A stretch of DNA of 64,000 nt from Bacteroidota bacterium (GCA_003554865.1 PWHJ01000221.1:6594-70593); one strand, 5' to 3'. Counted from the stretch's first letter, positions 1-7,200 are shown. Numbers and translations: made by a program. The notes: generated by a model from the sequence alone, not told the origin.

Positions 1-817
1 GATGTTCTTTACCCCGCGGGTCATCGGTCTCCCACAAGCCATCCATTATCCCTTCGGCTATAAGTGCATAAACGGCTTTGTCGATCGCCTCCTGCACAGC
101 CATATGAGAAGGCTCATTGTAGGTAAAACCAGTTTCTGCCTCCAGTATCTTGTTGAGTGATACAAAGCGGAACAACCCGGAATTGAGTTTTTGAGATAAT
201 ATTGTTTTTGAAGTGTGAACATTTTTTAAGATCCGGCCACTGCTTGTTGAAACTGCCCTGAGATAAACGGAAACCTTGTCTTCGCGGTATTCACCTGAGG
301 CGCCTGCACCAAAATAACGCAAACCCGCGCCCCCTGTTACAATATTGGTTTCATATGATATAATTCCGCCTTCAAGTGTTACGCCGCCAAATAAAAGAGG
401 AGGCACAAGAGGGCCTTGCTGACTTCCACCCTGAAATTGCTCCCGGCTTGATCTTATTAACCTGCGTTCATTTAAAAGATTTGACAAACCTTCACGCTCA
501 ATGGTAACAAACCATCCAGATTCATCAAGCGCCTGCAGAAGTATTGAAGTAGCTCCCTGTGTAACGGCAGTTGACCAGCTGGCACCCACCTCAGAAAGCT
601 TATATTGTCCGCTCTGATCGCGAAACTGATAAACTGCAGCAACAACTTTCTCTTTTGGCTTTGGCAGTTTTCCAAAATCTTCATGAACAGCAGAAAATTC
701 TCCTAAACGTGCTTCTTCAGTAGATGCAGGTACCCTGAATGTAGAATCACATCCTCCCAAAAAAAGTGTGAATAAAAACAAAAGCCGTATTTTTCCTTTG
801 AAAAAGAGGAGATTCAT
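1..817 (-). CDS. csgG: Curli production assembly/transport lipoprotein CsgG (C-terminus runs off the left edge)
   Basis: My own translation from ATG at 817: MNLLFFKGKIRLLFLFTLFLGGCDS (lipobox), then AAVYQFRDQSGQYK, STAVTQGATSILLQALDESGWFVTIEREGLSNLLNERRLIR, LEGGIISYETNIVTGGAGLRYFGAGASGEYREDKVSVYLRAVS. These are classic CsgG blocks. The frame is open to position 1. Confidence 0.9.
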   Translation of the reverse strand, partial: MNLLFFKGKIRLLFLFTLFLGGCDSTFRVPASTEEARLGEFSAVHEDFGKLPKPKEKVVAAVYQFRDQSGQYKLSEVGASWSTAVTQGATSILLQALDESGWFVTIEREGLSNLLNERRLIRSSREQFQGGSQQGPLVPPLLFGGVTLEGGIISYETNIVTGGAGLRYFGAGASGEYREDKVSVYLRAVSTSSGRILKNVHTSKTILSQKLNSGLFRFVSLNKILEAETGFTYNEPSHMAVQEAIDKAVYALIAEGIMDGLWETDDPRGKEH

Positions 818-893
818 ATACTTTTAGTTAATTTTAAATACCACTCACCTTTAAAGTATCATACTTATATATTGCTTCACTAATGCTATAATA

Positions 894-1313
894 CTAATAA
901 TGAGGAATGGTAACGGTTGTCTCCCCTCCGGTTTCTGTATCCAGTATATAGATAACTAATCCGTCAACTCCCGGAGTCACCTCAATTTCATAATTTCCAA
1001 ATACGTAGGTTCCCTCGCCAAAAGCTTCTTCACCAAACTGTTTAGCCATAACCTGACGTGAAAGCTGACTCAAAATTTGCCTGCTCAGGCTTGCCTGAAA
1101 ATCTTCAAGCGGATCGCGGCGAAAGGTATCACGTGGGGTAACTTCCTCTTCAAAATCACTCTGTATTTCTGCTGAATTGAGCAGCCACTGATAATTCAGG
1201 TAATTGCCTCCAAATGCCGGATTTGTCGGTCTGTAGACAAAATCCTGGCTTTTGGCTGCCATTGATGATAAAACAAGAAAAAGAATGAATACTAAAAATT
1301 TTGATAATTTCAT
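894..1313 (-). CDS. csgF: Curli assembly component CsgF-like
   Basis: Signal peptide, then FVYRPTNPAFGGNYLNYQWLLNSAEIQ, which matches the conserved CsgF N-terminal motif. Lies between csgE- and csgG-like genes. Confidence 0.8.
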   Translation of the reverse strand: MKLSKFLVFILFLVLSSMAAKSQDFVYRPTNPAFGGNYLNYQWLLNSAEIQSDFEEEVTPRDTFRRDPLEDFQASLSRQILSQLSRQVMAKQFGEEAFGEGTYVFGNYEIEVTPGVDGLVIYILDTETGGETTVTIPHY

Positions 1314-1413
1314 CTCAGATTGATTTTATGTTGGACTTGTTTTTTTATTTTTTTCAATTATTTTTGTTATTGTAAATGGTTTGTTTGTGCCTTGCGCATA
1401 AATAAAATGTTTC

Positions 1414-1444
1414 AGCTGCCCGCTTCCTGCGGGCAGCTTTTTTT
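1414..1444. other. GC-rich 10-bp hairpin (AGCTGCCCGC-ttcct-GCGGGCAGCT) with a T-tract on the plus-strand side, between csgE and csgF
   Basis: Perfect inverted repeat 1414-1423/1429-1438. The T run 1438-1444 overlaps the csgE stop codon. On the coding (minus) strand the stem is followed by GAAACAUUUUAUUUAU. Confidence 0.5.
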
Positions 1445-1907
1445 AGTAAATGCCGCTTCCTGAAAAATCCTGGCTCTCCATCTGTTCCTGGTCAATTTCA
1501 TAGTCAATAAAGTAGGACTGGGTCTGTTCTATTGCTGCCTGTGCAGCATCAATAATCTCCTGGTAACCTGGCCTGAGAGAAGTTCCATAGACTTGCCGGT
1601 CCTCGACCCTTACGGTTATTATAACCCCCATTCCGGGAACAGGACGTTCTTCTATATATACTGACAATCCGACAACACCGGAAGGATTGCTCCAGTGTTG
1701 AAAAAAATGATTATAAAAATCACTTCCCACCTTTGTTATGGTTTTATTAAATATAAATTCCGTAATTTCTATACCCTCTCCCTCATCCATAACACCCCCC
1801 TGCAGTTCCAGGTCAATTAATCTGGAAAGCTGAGCCTGCACAGAAAAGTAAGGGAGGGCAAGCAATAAAATCAGAGTAAGGATTTTTTTAAATGTCTTGC
1901 AGTTCAT
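1443..1907 (-). CDS. csgE: Curli assembly component CsgE-like
   Basis: Signal peptide, then FIFNKTITKVGSDFYNHFFQHWS and VYIEERP...GVIITVRVEDRQVY, which resemble CsgE conserved blocks. Gene order is csgE-csgF-csgG. Confidence 0.75.
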   Translation of the reverse strand: MNCKTFKKILTLILLLALPYFSVQAQLSRLIDLELQGGVMDEGEGIEITEFIFNKTITKVGSDFYNHFFQHWSNPSGVVGLSVYIEERPVPGMGVIITVRVEDRQVYGTSLRPGYQEIIDAAQAAIEQTQSYFIDYEIDQEQMESQDFSGSGIY

Positions 1908-1923
1908 ATTTTTTCTGTTTAAT

Positions 1924-2220
1924 TTATATGCTTGAGTGATATATCACATTTTTTTCACTTTCGGAAACCATAAAATAAAGTTCATCCGGGTTTACCAGCA
2001 TTAACTGACAGGGTTGGGAAAACTCATTATTCAATCTTTTCAGCATAGCGTAAAAGACATTAGGTTCAGTTCCAAAAATTATCACAAGGCTGATTGTTTC
2101 CAGTTTTTTTAAAACATTAATTGCTCCGTCAATATCATTTGATATATTAAAGGAGTCGTCCATTACCTCATCCTCCATCTCCACTCCGATCCCGTGTTTT
2201 CCTATCAACAGTATTTTCAT
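1924..2220 (-). CDS. Small receiver-like (pseudo-receiver) protein; first gene after the sigma-54 element
   Basis: MKILLIG...DGAINVLKKLETISLVIIFGTEPNVFYAMLKRL follows a CheY-like beta1/alpha/beta3 pattern but has no acidic pocket or acceptor Asp. The family call is tentative. Confidence 0.45.
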   Translation of the reverse strand: MKILLIGKHGIGVEMEDEVMDDSFNISNDIDGAINVLKKLETISLVIIFGTEPNVFYAMLKRLNNEFSQPCQLMLVNPDELYFMVSESEKNVIYHSSI

Positions 2221-2253
2221 TTAATTTAATTGTATTATTCTAACATAAATATA

Positions 2254-2269
2254 TGCATAATATATGCCA
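2254..2269 (-). promoter_or_regulatory. Candidate sigma-54 (-24/-12) promoter TGGCAT-ATATT-ATGCA
   Basis: The minus strand reads TGGCATATATTATGCA. GG (2268-2267) and GC (2256-2255) have exactly the spacing of consensus TGGCAC-N5-TTGCW. The -12 GC lies about 35 nt upstream of the ATG at 2220. A sigma-54 activator gene sits immediately upstream. Confidence 0.55.
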
Positions 2270-2510
2270 CTCCGAATATTTTCTTGATTATGTGAGACTT
2301 ATGACAAATTTTGCAAGTTAAAAAATGACCCATTTTTGTCCGTTTGCGGTCAAAAAAAACACAATTTATTTATAAACCTTATTGGAGGTGATTAAAAAAT
2401 GCTTAAATGATGTGACCGGATGCGGGCAGGTGGTAACTAAACGGGCACTGCCAAACGGCGCCCACAAAGTACTGACAAACAAAATGTTAATATTGAAAGA
2501 ACAGGGGAGG

Positions 2511-3887
2511 TTAGTCCTGGATTATGGAATATTTTTTTATTTTCCTGTCAAGGGCCTGTCTTGATATATCGAGTACTTTTGCGGCTCTTGTCTTATTGTA
2601 ATTGCAGCGCAATAACGCTTTTTTGATAGCAGTCTTTTCAACGCTCTGAAGGTTAAGCCCATCACCGGGAATAAACATACTGCTGTCTCTGTTAAATAAT
2701 TTAATATGCTGAGCTCTGATAGTGCTGTCATCACAAATTATTGTTGCGCGTTCAATAATATTTTTCAACTCCCTTACATTTCCGGGAAAATCATAGTTTA
2801 ACATTTTATCGTAAACATTATCTTCAATATTTTCAATATTTTTCCCGAGTTTCCTGGAAAAATAAGCAGTATAATAGTTGATCAGCTCGGGAACATCCTC
2901 CTTTCTCAGGCGCAGCGGCGGTATATTTATTGTGAATGGACTTATCCGGTAATATAGGTCAGGCCGGAATTCATTGTCGGCCACCATATTTTCCAGATTT
3001 TGATTGGTGGCTACTATAATTCTGACATCAATATTTATATGTTTTCTTTCTCCTATCTTGCTGATCATTTTGTTTTCCAGTGCCCTTAAAAATTTAGACT
3101 GCATATTTAAGGGCAACTCTGAAACCTCATCAAGAAAGAGGCTTCCATTTTGTGAAATTTCAAACCATCCCGGCGTACTTTCAACAGCTCCAGTGAAAGC
3201 TCCTTTCTTATGTCCAAAAAATTCACTTTCGAAAAGATTTTCAGGTATGGATGCGCAATTGACAGAGTGGAAAAATTGTCGGGATCTTTTGCTTAAGGCA
3301 TGAATGCTGCGTGCTATCAGCTCCTTGCCTGTTCCGCTCTCACCTGTAATAAGAACAGTCGTTGAATCAGACCCGGCAACCTTGTCCACCAGATTTATTA
3401 CTTCCTTTATTGCCGGACTTGTGCCAACTATCTCTAGTTTTGTTTTTCTGTAGAGATCGGAACATATCCTTTTATACTGCAGATCATTTTCAGTATATTT
3501 TTTTTGAAACTCAGCAAATGGCCTGATTCGTTCCAGAGTTTTCTTTAATTGCTTTAAATTAAAAGGCTTCAGCAAAAGACCATCAGCTCCGGCTAAATAG
3601 GCATCATAAAGATCTTTTGAATCACTCTCCTGATTTACAATAATCACTAAAGTCATTAATGAATTCAAAGACTTTAATTTCCTGATAAGCTCAATTGAAG
3701 CAGAATTCTCAGGCGCCATGAATAAAAAAACAATGTCAATACCTTCCTGACTTAGTATATTTACCCCCTCTGAAATGTCTAAGCTTTTATAAACATCGCA
3801 CCCGCTTTTGAGTAAATAATTATCAAGCAAGCCACCGTTTTTGAAGCTATCTCCAAGAATTAATATTTTTAATTTTTCAACCACCAT
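2511..3887 (-). CDS. Sigma-54-dependent transcriptional activator (NtrC family: receiver + AAA+ + Fis-type HTH)
   Basis: Walker A GESGTGKELIARSIH, intact GAFTGA loop (GHKKGAFTGAVES), ESEFFGH, RIIVATN, and C-terminal HTH (NKTRAAKVLDISRQAL). The N-terminal receiver has DIVFLFMAPE where DxxxxD is expected. Confidence 0.9.
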   Translation of the reverse strand: MVVEKLKILILGDSFKNGGLLDNYLLKSGCDVYKSLDISEGVNILSQEGIDIVFLFMAPENSASIELIRKLKSLNSLMTLVIIVNQESDSKDLYDAYLAGADGLLLKPFNLKQLKKTLERIRPFAEFQKKYTENDLQYKRICSDLYRKTKLEIVGTSPAIKEVINLVDKVAGSDSTTVLITGESGTGKELIARSIHALSKRSRQFFHSVNCASIPENLFESEFFGHKKGAFTGAVESTPGWFEISQNGSLFLDEVSELPLNMQSKFLRALENKMISKIGERKHINIDVRIIVATNQNLENMVADNEFRPDLYYRISPFTINIPPLRLRKEDVPELINYYTAYFSRKLGKNIENIEDNVYDKMLNYDFPGNVRELKNIIERATIICDDSTIRAQHIKLFNRDSSMFIPGDGLNLQSVEKTAIKKALLRCNYNKTRAAKVLDISRQALDRKIKKYSIIQD

Positions 3888-4240: not shown

Positions 4241-7200
4241 TCAAACATTTGCAATCCGCTCTTTTATCCATTCCCGGGCATTTATAAATGCGCTCAGCCA
4301 TGGGGATATCTCGTCCCTGCAGCGTTCACCAGGATAATGTGCCCAGTTCCAGGGATATAAAGAGCGCTCAATGTGGGGCATCATTGCAAGGTGTCTGCCG
4401 TCGGGACTGCAAACGGCGGCGGCAGAAAAGTCTGAACCGTTCGGATTGCCGGGATACTCTTTATATGTATATTTCACCGGTATGGTGTAATCACCCTCTT
4501 TGCCGGGCAAAATGAACCTTCCCTCGCCATGGGCTATCCAGATACCAAGACGGCTTTCTGAAAGCGAGCCGAGCATTACAGTATCATTTTCAGGGATATC
4601 AACATTAACAAAAGCTGACTCGAACTTGCCGGAAGTGTTGATCCTCATTTCCGGTCTCCCTTCCCCGTGTATTCCAAGTAACCCCAACTCTACCATAAGC
4701 TGGCACCCGTTACAGACACCCAGGCTGAGGGTGTCTTCGCGTGCATAAAACCTGTCAAGGCTCTCCCTTGCCTTCTCATTGAAAAGAAAAGCACCAGCCC
4801 AGCCCTTGGCCGAACCAAGAACATCGCTGTTGGAGAAACCTCCCACAAAAACTATCATATTAACATCCTCAAGTGTTTCATCCCCGCTTATAAGGTCAGT
4901 CATATGCACATCTTTCACATCCATTCCGGAGAGATGCATTATCCATGCCATCTCCCTGTCACCGTTAACACCTTTTTCCCTTATTACTGCAGCCTTAACA
5001 CCACTCCGCTCCCTGCGATCAGCATCAATTCCGTACTGTTCAAGCATACCGGAAAAATCAAGAGGGAACCTGTAGGACAAAACCTGACCGGGATAATTGC
5101 GGAACCTTTCACGGGCAAGCTCCTCGCCCGACTGCCTCCTGTCAAGCAGGTAAGAAGAACGGTACCACACATCCCTGAGCTTGTCAATATCAAAGGAGTA
5201 TTCGCCATTGCGGGAGGTAGCTATGGTGAATTTCCTCCCGTTGTTATACCTCCCGATAAATTTTGCATCCACCCCCTTTTCAAACAAAAAATCCATGATC
5301 CTTTCGGGATCATCGACCTGTAAAACCACGGCCGGCTTCTCAGAGAAAAGAACATGCAGGGGATCCTCATCGAAAAAGGATATATCGGCATGCACTCCGT
5401 CAAGCCTTCCTGCAAAGCACATCTCCAGGAGAGCCGTTATCAGTCCGCCTGCAGAAACATCATGGCCGGCAAGAACCTCCCCCTTTTCAATAAGCTCCTG
5501 CAGAGAATTGAAAGCTTTAACAAAATAAGAAGCATCTTTGACAGTGGGGGCGGTTTTGCCGATATAATTCAGAGATTGTGCAAAACTGCTTCCACCGAGA
5601 TGAAATTCGTCCCGCGAAAAATCTATATACAAAAGTGAGCTGCCCGGTATATTTTTCAGGTTCGGGGTAACCGGCCTGTTTATATCTTTCACCTCGGCCG
5701 CGGCAGATATAATAACGGTCCCGGGTGCATACACCACAGTACCGTCTTTGTATTTTTGGGTCATTGAAAGGGAATCCTTGCCGGTAGGTATATTTATACC
5801 GAGGGATTTTGCAAAACCGGAAGTCGCCTCCACGGCCCTATAAAGACGGCTATCCTCACCCTTGTGCCGGGTGGCCCACATCCAGTTGGCACTGAGCGAT
5901 ACACCTTTAATCCCATCCTGCAGGGGTGCCCAAACAATATTGGTCAACGCTTCGGCAATTGACAATACCGAGCCATTGGCCGGATCGATAAGACCGGGTA
6001 TTGGTGCATGACCTATGGCTGTTGCAACTCCTCTTCCACCACCATGATCAAGGGCCATAACAGCCACGTTGTTCAGCGGCAGCTGAACTTCCCCGGTCGT
6101 CTGCTGCAGGGCAACCCTTCCCGTTACACTGCGGTCAACCTTATTGGTCAGCCAATCCTTGCAGGCAACAGCTTCCATCTGAAGCACCGAGACAAGGTAC
6201 TCCCTGAAACGTTTGGTGTCGAACTGCAGCTCTTCAAATCCGCTCTCCAATGCAGAATCCTTCATAACTGTTTGAGGCGGATTACCAAAGAGCCAGTCGA
6301 GCTGAAGATCCAAAGGCTTAACTTTTTTTACAGTATCCTCAAATGTCAGATGCCTGTCGCCTGTAACCTCCCCCACATCATACATAGGTGCCCGCTCCCG
6401 ATCAGCCACCCTTTTCAAAAAGAACAGATCATGCGGATTGATCACCAGCCCCATTCTCTCCTGCGACTCATTGCCGGCTACCTCTTTTGCTGACAAGGTA
6501 GTATCGCCCACCGGCAACTTGTCCATTTCAATCCTTCCTCCTGTTTCCTCCACCAGTTCGGAAAAACAGTTCAAATGCCCCCCGGCCCCGTGGTCATGCA
6601 CAGAGACTATGGGATTTTTATCCGATTCCATCATGGCACGTATGGCATTGCTCACCCTTTTTTGCATCTCCGGGTTAGAACGCTGAACTGCATTGAGCTC
6701 AATAAAGTTGTCATACTCACCTGTAGCAACTGAAGAAACGGAGCTTCCCCCCATCCCGATGCGGTAATTTTCTCCCCCCATCATTATTATGCGATCCCCC
6801 TTTTCAGGAACATCCTTCATGCTCTCCTTCCTTTTACCGTAACCTATACCGCCGGCAAGCATTATCACCTTGTCATAGCCGTAAGTGGTTTCTTTTTCCC
6901 TATGTTCAAAAGTAAGAAGGCTCCCGCAAATAAGAGGCTGCCCGAACTTATTCCCAAAATCACTGGCACCGTTGGATGCCTTGATGAGAATATCCTCAGG
7001 CGTGCGATAAAGCCATGGCCTGGGCAGTATTCCGCTTTCCCACGGCCTCCCCTCTTCAGTACGGGAATAAGGAGTCATATACACAGCAGTCCCCGCAAGC
7101 GGCACAGCACCCTTTCCTCCGGCCAGGCGATCCCGTATCTCTCCGCCCGTTCCCGTTGCCGCACCGTTAAAAGGTTCGACCGTAGTGGGAAAATTGTGGG

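Follow-up and report, generated by a model that had tools for sequence, protein, structure and literature searches.

A curli secretion locus in an uncultured Bacteroidota group appears to be controlled by sigma-54 and an adjacent NtrC-type activator

In Enterobacteria the curli genes are under the control of CsgD, RpoS and c-di-GMP, and to our knowledge curli regulation is understood almost only in that group. Here we describe a curli locus at the left end of a 64,000-nucleotide stretch of DNA from a Bacteroidota bacterium (GCA_003554865.1, PWHJ01000221.1:6594-70593; hereafter the window, with positions counted from its first base), in which the secretion genes csgE, csgF and csgG lie downstream of a predicted sigma-54 promoter and of a gene for a sigma-54 enhancer-binding protein of the NtrC family. 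The window corresponds to bases 6594-70593 of contig C18 in an assembly of 3.2 Mb (243 contigs, 96% complete, 42.5% G+C), referred to below as the host genome. Curli loci of Bacteroidetes have been reported to be without csgD, other regulators being suggested and none named (Dueholm et al. 2012, PMC3521004). The present locus is like those in phylum and gene set; what is added here is the identification of a sigma-54 activator module in one clade.

CsgE, CsgF and CsgG are common to this locus and the curli systems of E. coli and Salmonella, and curlin-repeat subunits as well as a borderline CsgC/CsgH-like gene are also found in the host locus. The host locus differs in being entirely co-directional (orf98-csgE-csgF-csgG, three curlin genes, the csgC/H-like gene and a gene for a 497-amino acid (aa) protein), in a C-terminal extension of about 190 aa on CsgG, and in having no csgD in its open reading frame (ORF) lists, sigma-54 and an enhancer-binding protein being predicted to take the place of CsgD and RpoS. 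A surface fibre under a dedicated enhancer-binding protein and sigma-54 is also the arrangement of the type IV pilin genes of Pseudomonas (PilR/PilS), although the fibre and its secretion route differ in the host. No report of sigma-54 control of curli was found in the literature. Control of the cell exterior has been put forward as a general theme of sigma-54, with curli occurring in the reference list alone (Francke et al. 2011, PMC3162934), and a 2025 survey of sigma-54 regulons makes no mention of curli, csg or amyloid (PMC12316311).

On the minus strand of the window the order is purL, the NtrC-family activator gene, a 290-nt spacer, orf98, csgE, a 129-nt spacer, csgF and csgG. Within the 290-nt spacer the minus strand at 2254-2269 reads TGGCAT-ATATT-ATGCA (TGGCATATATTATGCA), its GG and GC spaced as in the -24/-12 elements of sigma-54 promoters. 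An earlier sequence-only reading of the window had pointed out this element, its consensus GG/GC spacing and a distance of about 35 nt to the first ORF; the sequence is as it described, and the element ends 33 nt ahead of the orf98 ATG. If C2255 is taken as -12, transcription would start at 2243 on the minus strand, give or take about 2 nt, with a leader of about 23 nt. In our judgement the sequence features set out below make it quite probable that the site functions as a sigma-54 promoter and that the neighbouring activator serves it.

Parts 1 and 4 of S2 Table in PMC12316311 supplied 178 curated sites for a sigma-54 matrix. The matrix is mainly proteobacterial and dominated by Desulfovibrio sites, so that its spacer preferences are biased towards G+C. 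The site scores 12.8 bits, which is at the 13th percentile of the curated sites and within their range. Since 127 of 6.4 million positions in the whole genome reach this score or exceed it, the matrix by itself carries little weight at the genome scale; the score gains meaning when the search is confined to a single strand of a single 290-nt spacer, for which the expected number of such positions is about 0.006. Of the curated sites, 11% have A at position -15, as here. The core TGGCAT-N5-ATGCA is identical in the E. coli fdhF and hyfA promoters, and GT at -12 occurs in validated promoters, e.g. E. coli pspA and pspG (S2 Table, PMC12316311). The degenerate pattern TGGCAY-N5-WTGCW has 19 matches in the 3.2-Mb genome, eight of them in the 17% that lies outside ORFs of at least 100 aa, and five of these eight are followed within about 115 nt by the start of an ORF or of the gene for transfer-messenger RNA (tmRNA). 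The genome has one rpoN gene, whose 484-aa product exceeds the cut-offs for the Sigma54_AID, CBD and DBD domains. Matrix scoring and a search for rpoN had both been proposed as checks in the sequence-only reading, and the outcome of each agrees with the promoter that it had put forward.

Upstream of this element the 290-nt spacer holds two perfect TGnCCG-N4-CGGnCA palindromes of 16 bp each, 76 bp apart. The distal one, candidate upstream activator site 1 (UAS1, TGCCCGCATCCGGTCA; 2413-2428, minus strand), is centred at about -178 and is conserved in relatives, and the proximal one (UAS2, TGACCGCAAACGGACA; 2337-2352, minus strand) is centred at about -101; both are exact, and the TGG of the -24 element begins 83 bp after the start of UAS2. 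Enhancer-binding proteins usually bind about 80-200 bp upstream of sigma-54 promoters, and both candidate sites fit this range. Only four exact copies of TGnCCG-N4-CGGnCA exist in the whole 3.2-Mb genome, two of them in this spacer. No second pair was found in the genome with mismatches allowed, save for an unrelated 'pair' on contig C20, which sits inside a GC-rich coding repeat and was discarded. Because the palindrome pair is unique in the genome, the activator appears to be dedicated to this locus, as the sequence-only reading had proposed. Two dimer-type palindromes some 100-180 bp upstream of a GG-N10-GC element are likewise found at NtrC-dependent glnAp2 of E. coli and at the FhlA-dependent fdhF and hyf promoters; the host differs from these in that its activator is without the acceptor Asp, no histidine kinase gene is adjacent and the palindrome sequence is family-specific. 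Just ahead of UAS1, at 2432-2447 on the minus strand, there is also a third, degenerate half-palindrome (TGCCCGTTTAGTTACC), and the related locus L034 has an extra site (TGCCCGTTTTCAGTCA) that is similar to it and at the same place.

Related loci (numbered L) were collected by CsgE and CsgG searches, contig look-ups and a metagenome scan, and 25 genomes of the phylum were examined to 8 kb on either side of the locus. An orthologous activator with 48-55% identity is present in seven distinct loci, namely the window, L033, L034, L037, L060 (identical to L068), L061 and L066. Their spacers can be aligned only at the two palindromes and at [T/C]GG-N9-[T/A/G]G in the -24/-12 register. This layout recurs in L033, L034, L037, L060 (three sets), L061 and L066 (two sets), and also in L067; the additional palindrome-plus-promoter sets of L060 and L066 stand before csgF, and the one in L067 stands before csgG. 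Over ten promoter regions the two palindromes are separated by 70-83 bp, the TGG follows the start of the proximal one at 80-83 bp, and the -24 GG and the -13 G stay in register, the background for such an element at that offset being 4.2% per position. In L061 the activator gene is found at the far 3' end and orf98 is absent, and a palindrome pair with TGGAAT-N5-TTGT is still located upstream of csgE. Neither the palindrome pair nor orf98 was found in about 108 activator-less loci (25 phylum genomes, 79 metagenome loci and L062-L065). The palindromes thus occur solely where the activator gene occurs, even after the gene has moved.

Several observations weigh against a working sigma-54 promoter under this activator. 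The site ranks low among the curated sites, on a matrix made mainly of proteobacterial ones. In 6 of 11 elements T or A stands in place of the -12 C, and in four the T at -14, a position with hardly any variation among curated sites, has given way to A or G. On the same proteobacteria-dominated matrix the scores of several relatives fall between 3.5 and 10 bits, with one at -0.8. The CsgG tree places all activator-bearing loci in one clade (98/95 support), with L062, L063 and L067 as its sister group; the module therefore has a single origin, and the conservation amounts to phylogenetic footprinting in one lineage and not to independent recurrence. Finally, a repeated motif before csgF and the curlin genes, described below, may be another kind of promoter. 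In a simple scan no conserved sigma-54-like site was seen near csgE in 25 distant Bacteroidota loci, because those loci are without the activator.

The degenerate -12 elements of the relatives and the 127 genome positions that match or exceed the site would fit a chance likeness to -24/-12 elements, with the palindromes acting as operators at a promoter of another type and the activator serving another target. We consider this improbable, since a GG and a -13 G at a fixed 80-83 bp in ten regions contrast with the background frequency given above, the palindromes track the activator gene even where it has moved, and the genome holds no other pair. Nor is there a Bacteroidota housekeeping -7 box (TAnnTTTG) in the spacers between the activator gene and the next ORF (activator-orfX) or in that of L061, apart from one inside a palindrome of L033. 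Matches to E. coli-type sigma-70 promoters in the spacer were set aside as unconserved, not enriched over shuffled sequence and irrelevant for Bacteroidota. The site at 2254-2269 is thus best read as a probable sigma-54 promoter, and the proposal of the sequence-only reading that the curli genes are under such a promoter and a dedicated NtrC-type activator is supported by the matrix score, rpoN, the conserved spacing of palindromes and -24 element, and the co-occurrence with the activator gene.

The activator gene (2511-3887, minus strand) encodes a predicted sigma-54 enhancer-binding protein of 458 aa with a degenerate receiver, an AAA+ domain and a Fis-type helix-turn-helix domain, one of five enhancer-binding proteins encoded in the host genome. 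Its Pfam matches are Sigma54_activat (PF00158, 220 bits), HTH_8 (50 bits), Response_reg (38 bits) and AAA_lid_14, and its closest solved relative is NtrC1 of Aquifex (1NY5/4L4U, E 5e-85). The sequence-only reading had called the next gene upstream an enhancer-binding protein with an intact GAFTGA loop, in accordance with these domains and with the loop at residues 229-234. The loop is GAFTGA or GSFTGA in all seven orthologues, among which the Walker A motif GESGTGKE is invariant; in the host protein the Walker motifs and the helix-turn-helix are likewise intact.

FleQ at some promoters, and TyrR generally, work without sigma-54. The activator might do the same, as a repressor or as an activator of the sigma-70 type, and its degenerate receiver would be in keeping with the family members that act in this way. 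The GAFTGA loop is the contact with sigma-54, and its retention as GAFTGA or GSFTGA throughout the seven orthologues, together with a -24/-12 element that has the right spacing and follows the palindromes at the customary distance, makes such action very improbable in our view.

In the alignment with Aquifex NtrC1 the phospho-acceptor Asp is replaced by F56, and the acidic pair reads G12-D13. The acceptor Asp is kept in five of the seven orthologues and is Ala in L060. The Mg2+ pocket is down to one acidic residue in five of the seven, the window included, whereas L060 has D-D-D and L061 has just a Glu one position earlier. Judged from this alignment, the receiver of the host activator cannot be phosphorylated at the usual Asp, and in the window no histidine kinase gene adjoins the activator gene. 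Since the receiver is without its acceptor, the activator would have to take its input from a partner that binds it, from a ligand or from its own abundance.

The first gene after the promoter is orf98 (1924-2220, minus strand), which encodes a small protein of 98 aa from an orphan family, without a signal peptide and predicted to be cytoplasmic. Conservation beside the activator in five related loci indicates that it is a real gene. L061 has both the activator and the sites and no orf98. The family is very small, a profile search placing it in just 18 clusters among 1.84 billion representatives. The sequence-only reading had taken this ORF to be receiver-like, a description that we do not retain. 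The protein has no Pfam or NCBIfam match and no Protein Data Bank sequence match below E 0.3. Its AlphaFold2 model (pLDDT 80) has a beta-alpha-beta-alpha-beta order followed by three strands, and the best Foldseek match of this model had an E value of 0.03 and a TM score of 0.38, with no CheY-like protein among the 50 best matches listed.

PspF is an activator without a working receiver that is restrained by PspA, a product of the operon that PspF activates. By analogy, orf98 may be placed in the same way, as the cytoplasmic first product of a regulated operon beside a non-phosphorylatable activator; it is unlike PspA in sequence and fold, and L061 does without it. A role of orf98 as feedback modulator of the activator is a guess from gene position.

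How far transcription from the promoter extends depends on a GC-rich hairpin at 1414-1438, just after the csgE stop codon, which is conserved in L033, L034, L060 and L066. Its T-run is on the non-coding strand only; a terminator scan calls the hairpin on the plus strand only, and on the mRNA strand the next bases are UGAAAC. The hairpin was therefore not accepted as a canonical terminator of the mRNA strand, and because it has no U-tract there, read-through into csgF is plausible.

In the spacer between csgE and csgF there is a copy (CACAAACAAACCATTTACA; 1371-1389, minus strand, 58 nt before the csgF start) of an oriented 19-nt motif (CACAAAYAAAYCATTTACA), which recurs before csgF and every curlin gene. 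Further copies lie to the left of the window on the minus strand (at 5899, 5854, 5801, 4934 and 3942 of L003, the contig sequence on that side). Six of the 28 genome matches to AAAYCATTYRC are in this locus, and the motif is also present in L033, L034, L039, L060, L063, L065, L066 and L067. It stands exactly 20 nt ahead of the curlin start codons, whereas its distance to csgF is about 58-61 nt in the window, L033 and L039 and 198-340 nt in L034, L060 and L066. In L063 and L065, which have no activator, the motif lies upstream of csgE, where the sigma-54 module sits in the window. No known promoter consensus fits the motif, no TAnnTTTG box is seen when its copies are read by eye, and there is no Rfam match anywhere in the whole locus, the motif included. 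Possible roles for the motif are to mark separate promoters or to act as an RNA element.

If the motif copies are promoters, the sigma-54 switch would directly control only orf98 and csgE in the host genome. Sigma-54 and the activator would then drive just orf98-csgE, i.e. the CsgE adaptor, and csgF-csgG and each curlin gene would use promoters of their own. The locus-specificity of the motif and its orientation with the genes are in keeping with this arrangement, as are its position upstream of csgE in the two activator-less loci, the strong hairpin after csgE and the extra palindrome pairs with -24/-12 elements before csgF in L060 and L066, which suggest that read-through from the first promoter is insufficient in those two loci. 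The motif bears no resemblance to a described promoter or RNA family, it could equally be an RNA leader or processing element, and a hairpin without a U-tract leaves read-through plausible, so that we regard separate promoters as possible and, on balance, somewhat unlikely. Direct control by sigma-54 is best supported for orf98-csgE, and that of csgF and csgG would depend on read-through of the hairpin.

With transcription from the sigma-54 promoter at 2254-2269 taken as the preferred reading, the following sequence of events may be proposed. The sequence elements, their conservation, their link with the activator gene and rpoN are read directly from the sequences; activator binding, the start, the reach of the operon and the signal are deduced from them. 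Sigma-54 RNA polymerase would bind the site as a closed complex, and dimers of the activator would bind the two 16-bp palindromes, whose centres precede the predicted start by about 101 and 178 bp. The bound activator would form an ATPase ring, loop to the polymerase and open the promoter by means of its GAFTGA loop. Transcription from near 2243 would read orf98 and csgE, and the transcript would probably pass the hairpin into csgF, csgG and the three curlin genes. As a cytoplasmic product of the regulated operon, orf98 would be a candidate feedback modulator. It is tempting to extend this scheme to a self-contained, kinase-free sigma-54 switch in which orf98 binds the pseudo-receiver and sets a feedback threshold for amyloid export, with the 19-nt motif as a second locus-specific layer, either at the RNA level or through an undescribed sigma factor or regulator; this extension is speculative and, in our estimate, rather unlikely to hold in full.

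The genes downstream of the predicted promoter make this a genuine curli (type VIII secretion) locus, with CsgG, CsgE and CsgF together with curlin-repeat subunits. The string of csgE, csgF and csgG genes named in the sequence-only reading scores above the Pfam cut-offs throughout: csgE (1443-1907, minus strand) matches PF10627 with 73 bits against a cut-off of 25, csgF (894-1313, minus strand) matches PF10614 with 140 bits, and csgG, whose first 272 codons occupy 1-817 on the minus strand, matches PF03783 with 210 bits. The csgG gene runs on past the left edge, its whole ORF of 466 aa being at L003 7410-6010 on the minus strand. Upstream of the activator gene lies purL (7939-4241, minus strand). 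The 6.6 kb of contig to the left of the window hold the rest of the locus. The 64-kb window itself contains no curlin gene, and the expectation that a CsgA/CsgB-like subunit gene, if present, would lie beyond its left edge was borne out on inspection of that sequence, where three Curlin_rpt proteins of 253, 294 and 196 aa are encoded directly to the left, on the same strand as csgG, with profile scores of 113, 138 and 28 bits (cut-off 20.7). The last two genes of the locus are the 133-aa csgC/H-like gene and a gene for a 497-aa CarboxypepD_reg/beta-propeller protein. No LuxR-type csgD gene was found in the ORF lists of the locus and its flanks, in agreement with Dueholm et al. 2012 (PMC3521004) for Bacteroidetes.

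Bacteroidetes curli loci have also been reported without csgC (Dueholm et al. 2012, PMC3521004). The 133-aa protein (L003 2744-3145, minus strand) scores just under both relevant cut-offs (24.4 against 25 for CsgC and 23.0 against 27 for CsgH), and its homologues recur in related loci. The C-terminal extension of CsgG reaches about 190 aa past the CsgG domain (L003 6010-6590, minus strand) and has a faint PagL-like match in the host genome. It is kept in Bacteroidota homologues of 446-483 aa, some of which carry a PF13505 match in precomputed annotations.

Elsewhere in the host genome, groES-groEL is preceded at 57 nt by a sigma-54-like site (C83:54371-54386, plus strand; TGGCACAAATTATGCT), and a gene for an enhancer-binding protein is located about 3 kb upstream. 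The site has the ATGC form of the -12 element, like the curli site. Because groES is reported to be sigma-54-dependent in Bacteroides thetaiotaomicron (PMC12316311), this site serves as an internal positive control, and it agrees with the survey's account of heat-shock genes under sigma-54 in Bacteroidota. At another site, C102:46771-46786 (plus strand; TGGCATTGACTTTGCA), a sigma-54 start would coincide with the mature 5' end (GGGGCUGA) of the tmRNA or precede it by 1 nt; ARAGORN places the tmRNA gene at C102 46798-47193. Two further sites, C30:34347 (plus strand) and C90:14602 (minus strand), lie 113 and 51 nt before start codons, and the genes that follow them encode a pair of exported paralogues, each of about 445 aa.

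Among the 60 genomes searched for relatives within the order of the host, csgE was found in the host genome alone. A search with CsgE against named genome contigs gave just a weak verrucomicrobial match, and the first metagenome scan, made with a CsgE alignment, gave no confirmed relative. Where the relatives found in protein searches carry names, they point to Bacteroidales or Marinilabiliales-like Bacteroidota. In the activator-less sister loci L062 (1119-3113) and L063 (1946-3193), CsgE forms the C-terminal part of larger proteins of 664 and 415 aa. The curli loci of Alkalitalea saponilacus (L064, CP021904) and of the Marinilabiliales-like L065 are flanked by LytTR response regulators and have no sigma-54 activator; L064 also has a LytS-type kinase at the curli locus.

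An uncultured group of Bacteroidota thus appears to switch on its curli secretion genes by means of sigma-54, unlike E. coli with its CsgD and RpoS. Functional amyloid export would thereby join the cell-surface structures placed under sigma-54. The locus also shows that clades exchange the regulators of their curli genes, since LytTR systems in other loci take the place of the sigma-54 activator. As a natural protein whose receiver is predicted to be non-phosphorylatable, the activator would be well suited to the study of non-canonical activation, and the locus offers a concrete, testable circuit for curli in Bacteroidota, with a defined candidate activator, operator sequence and promoter.

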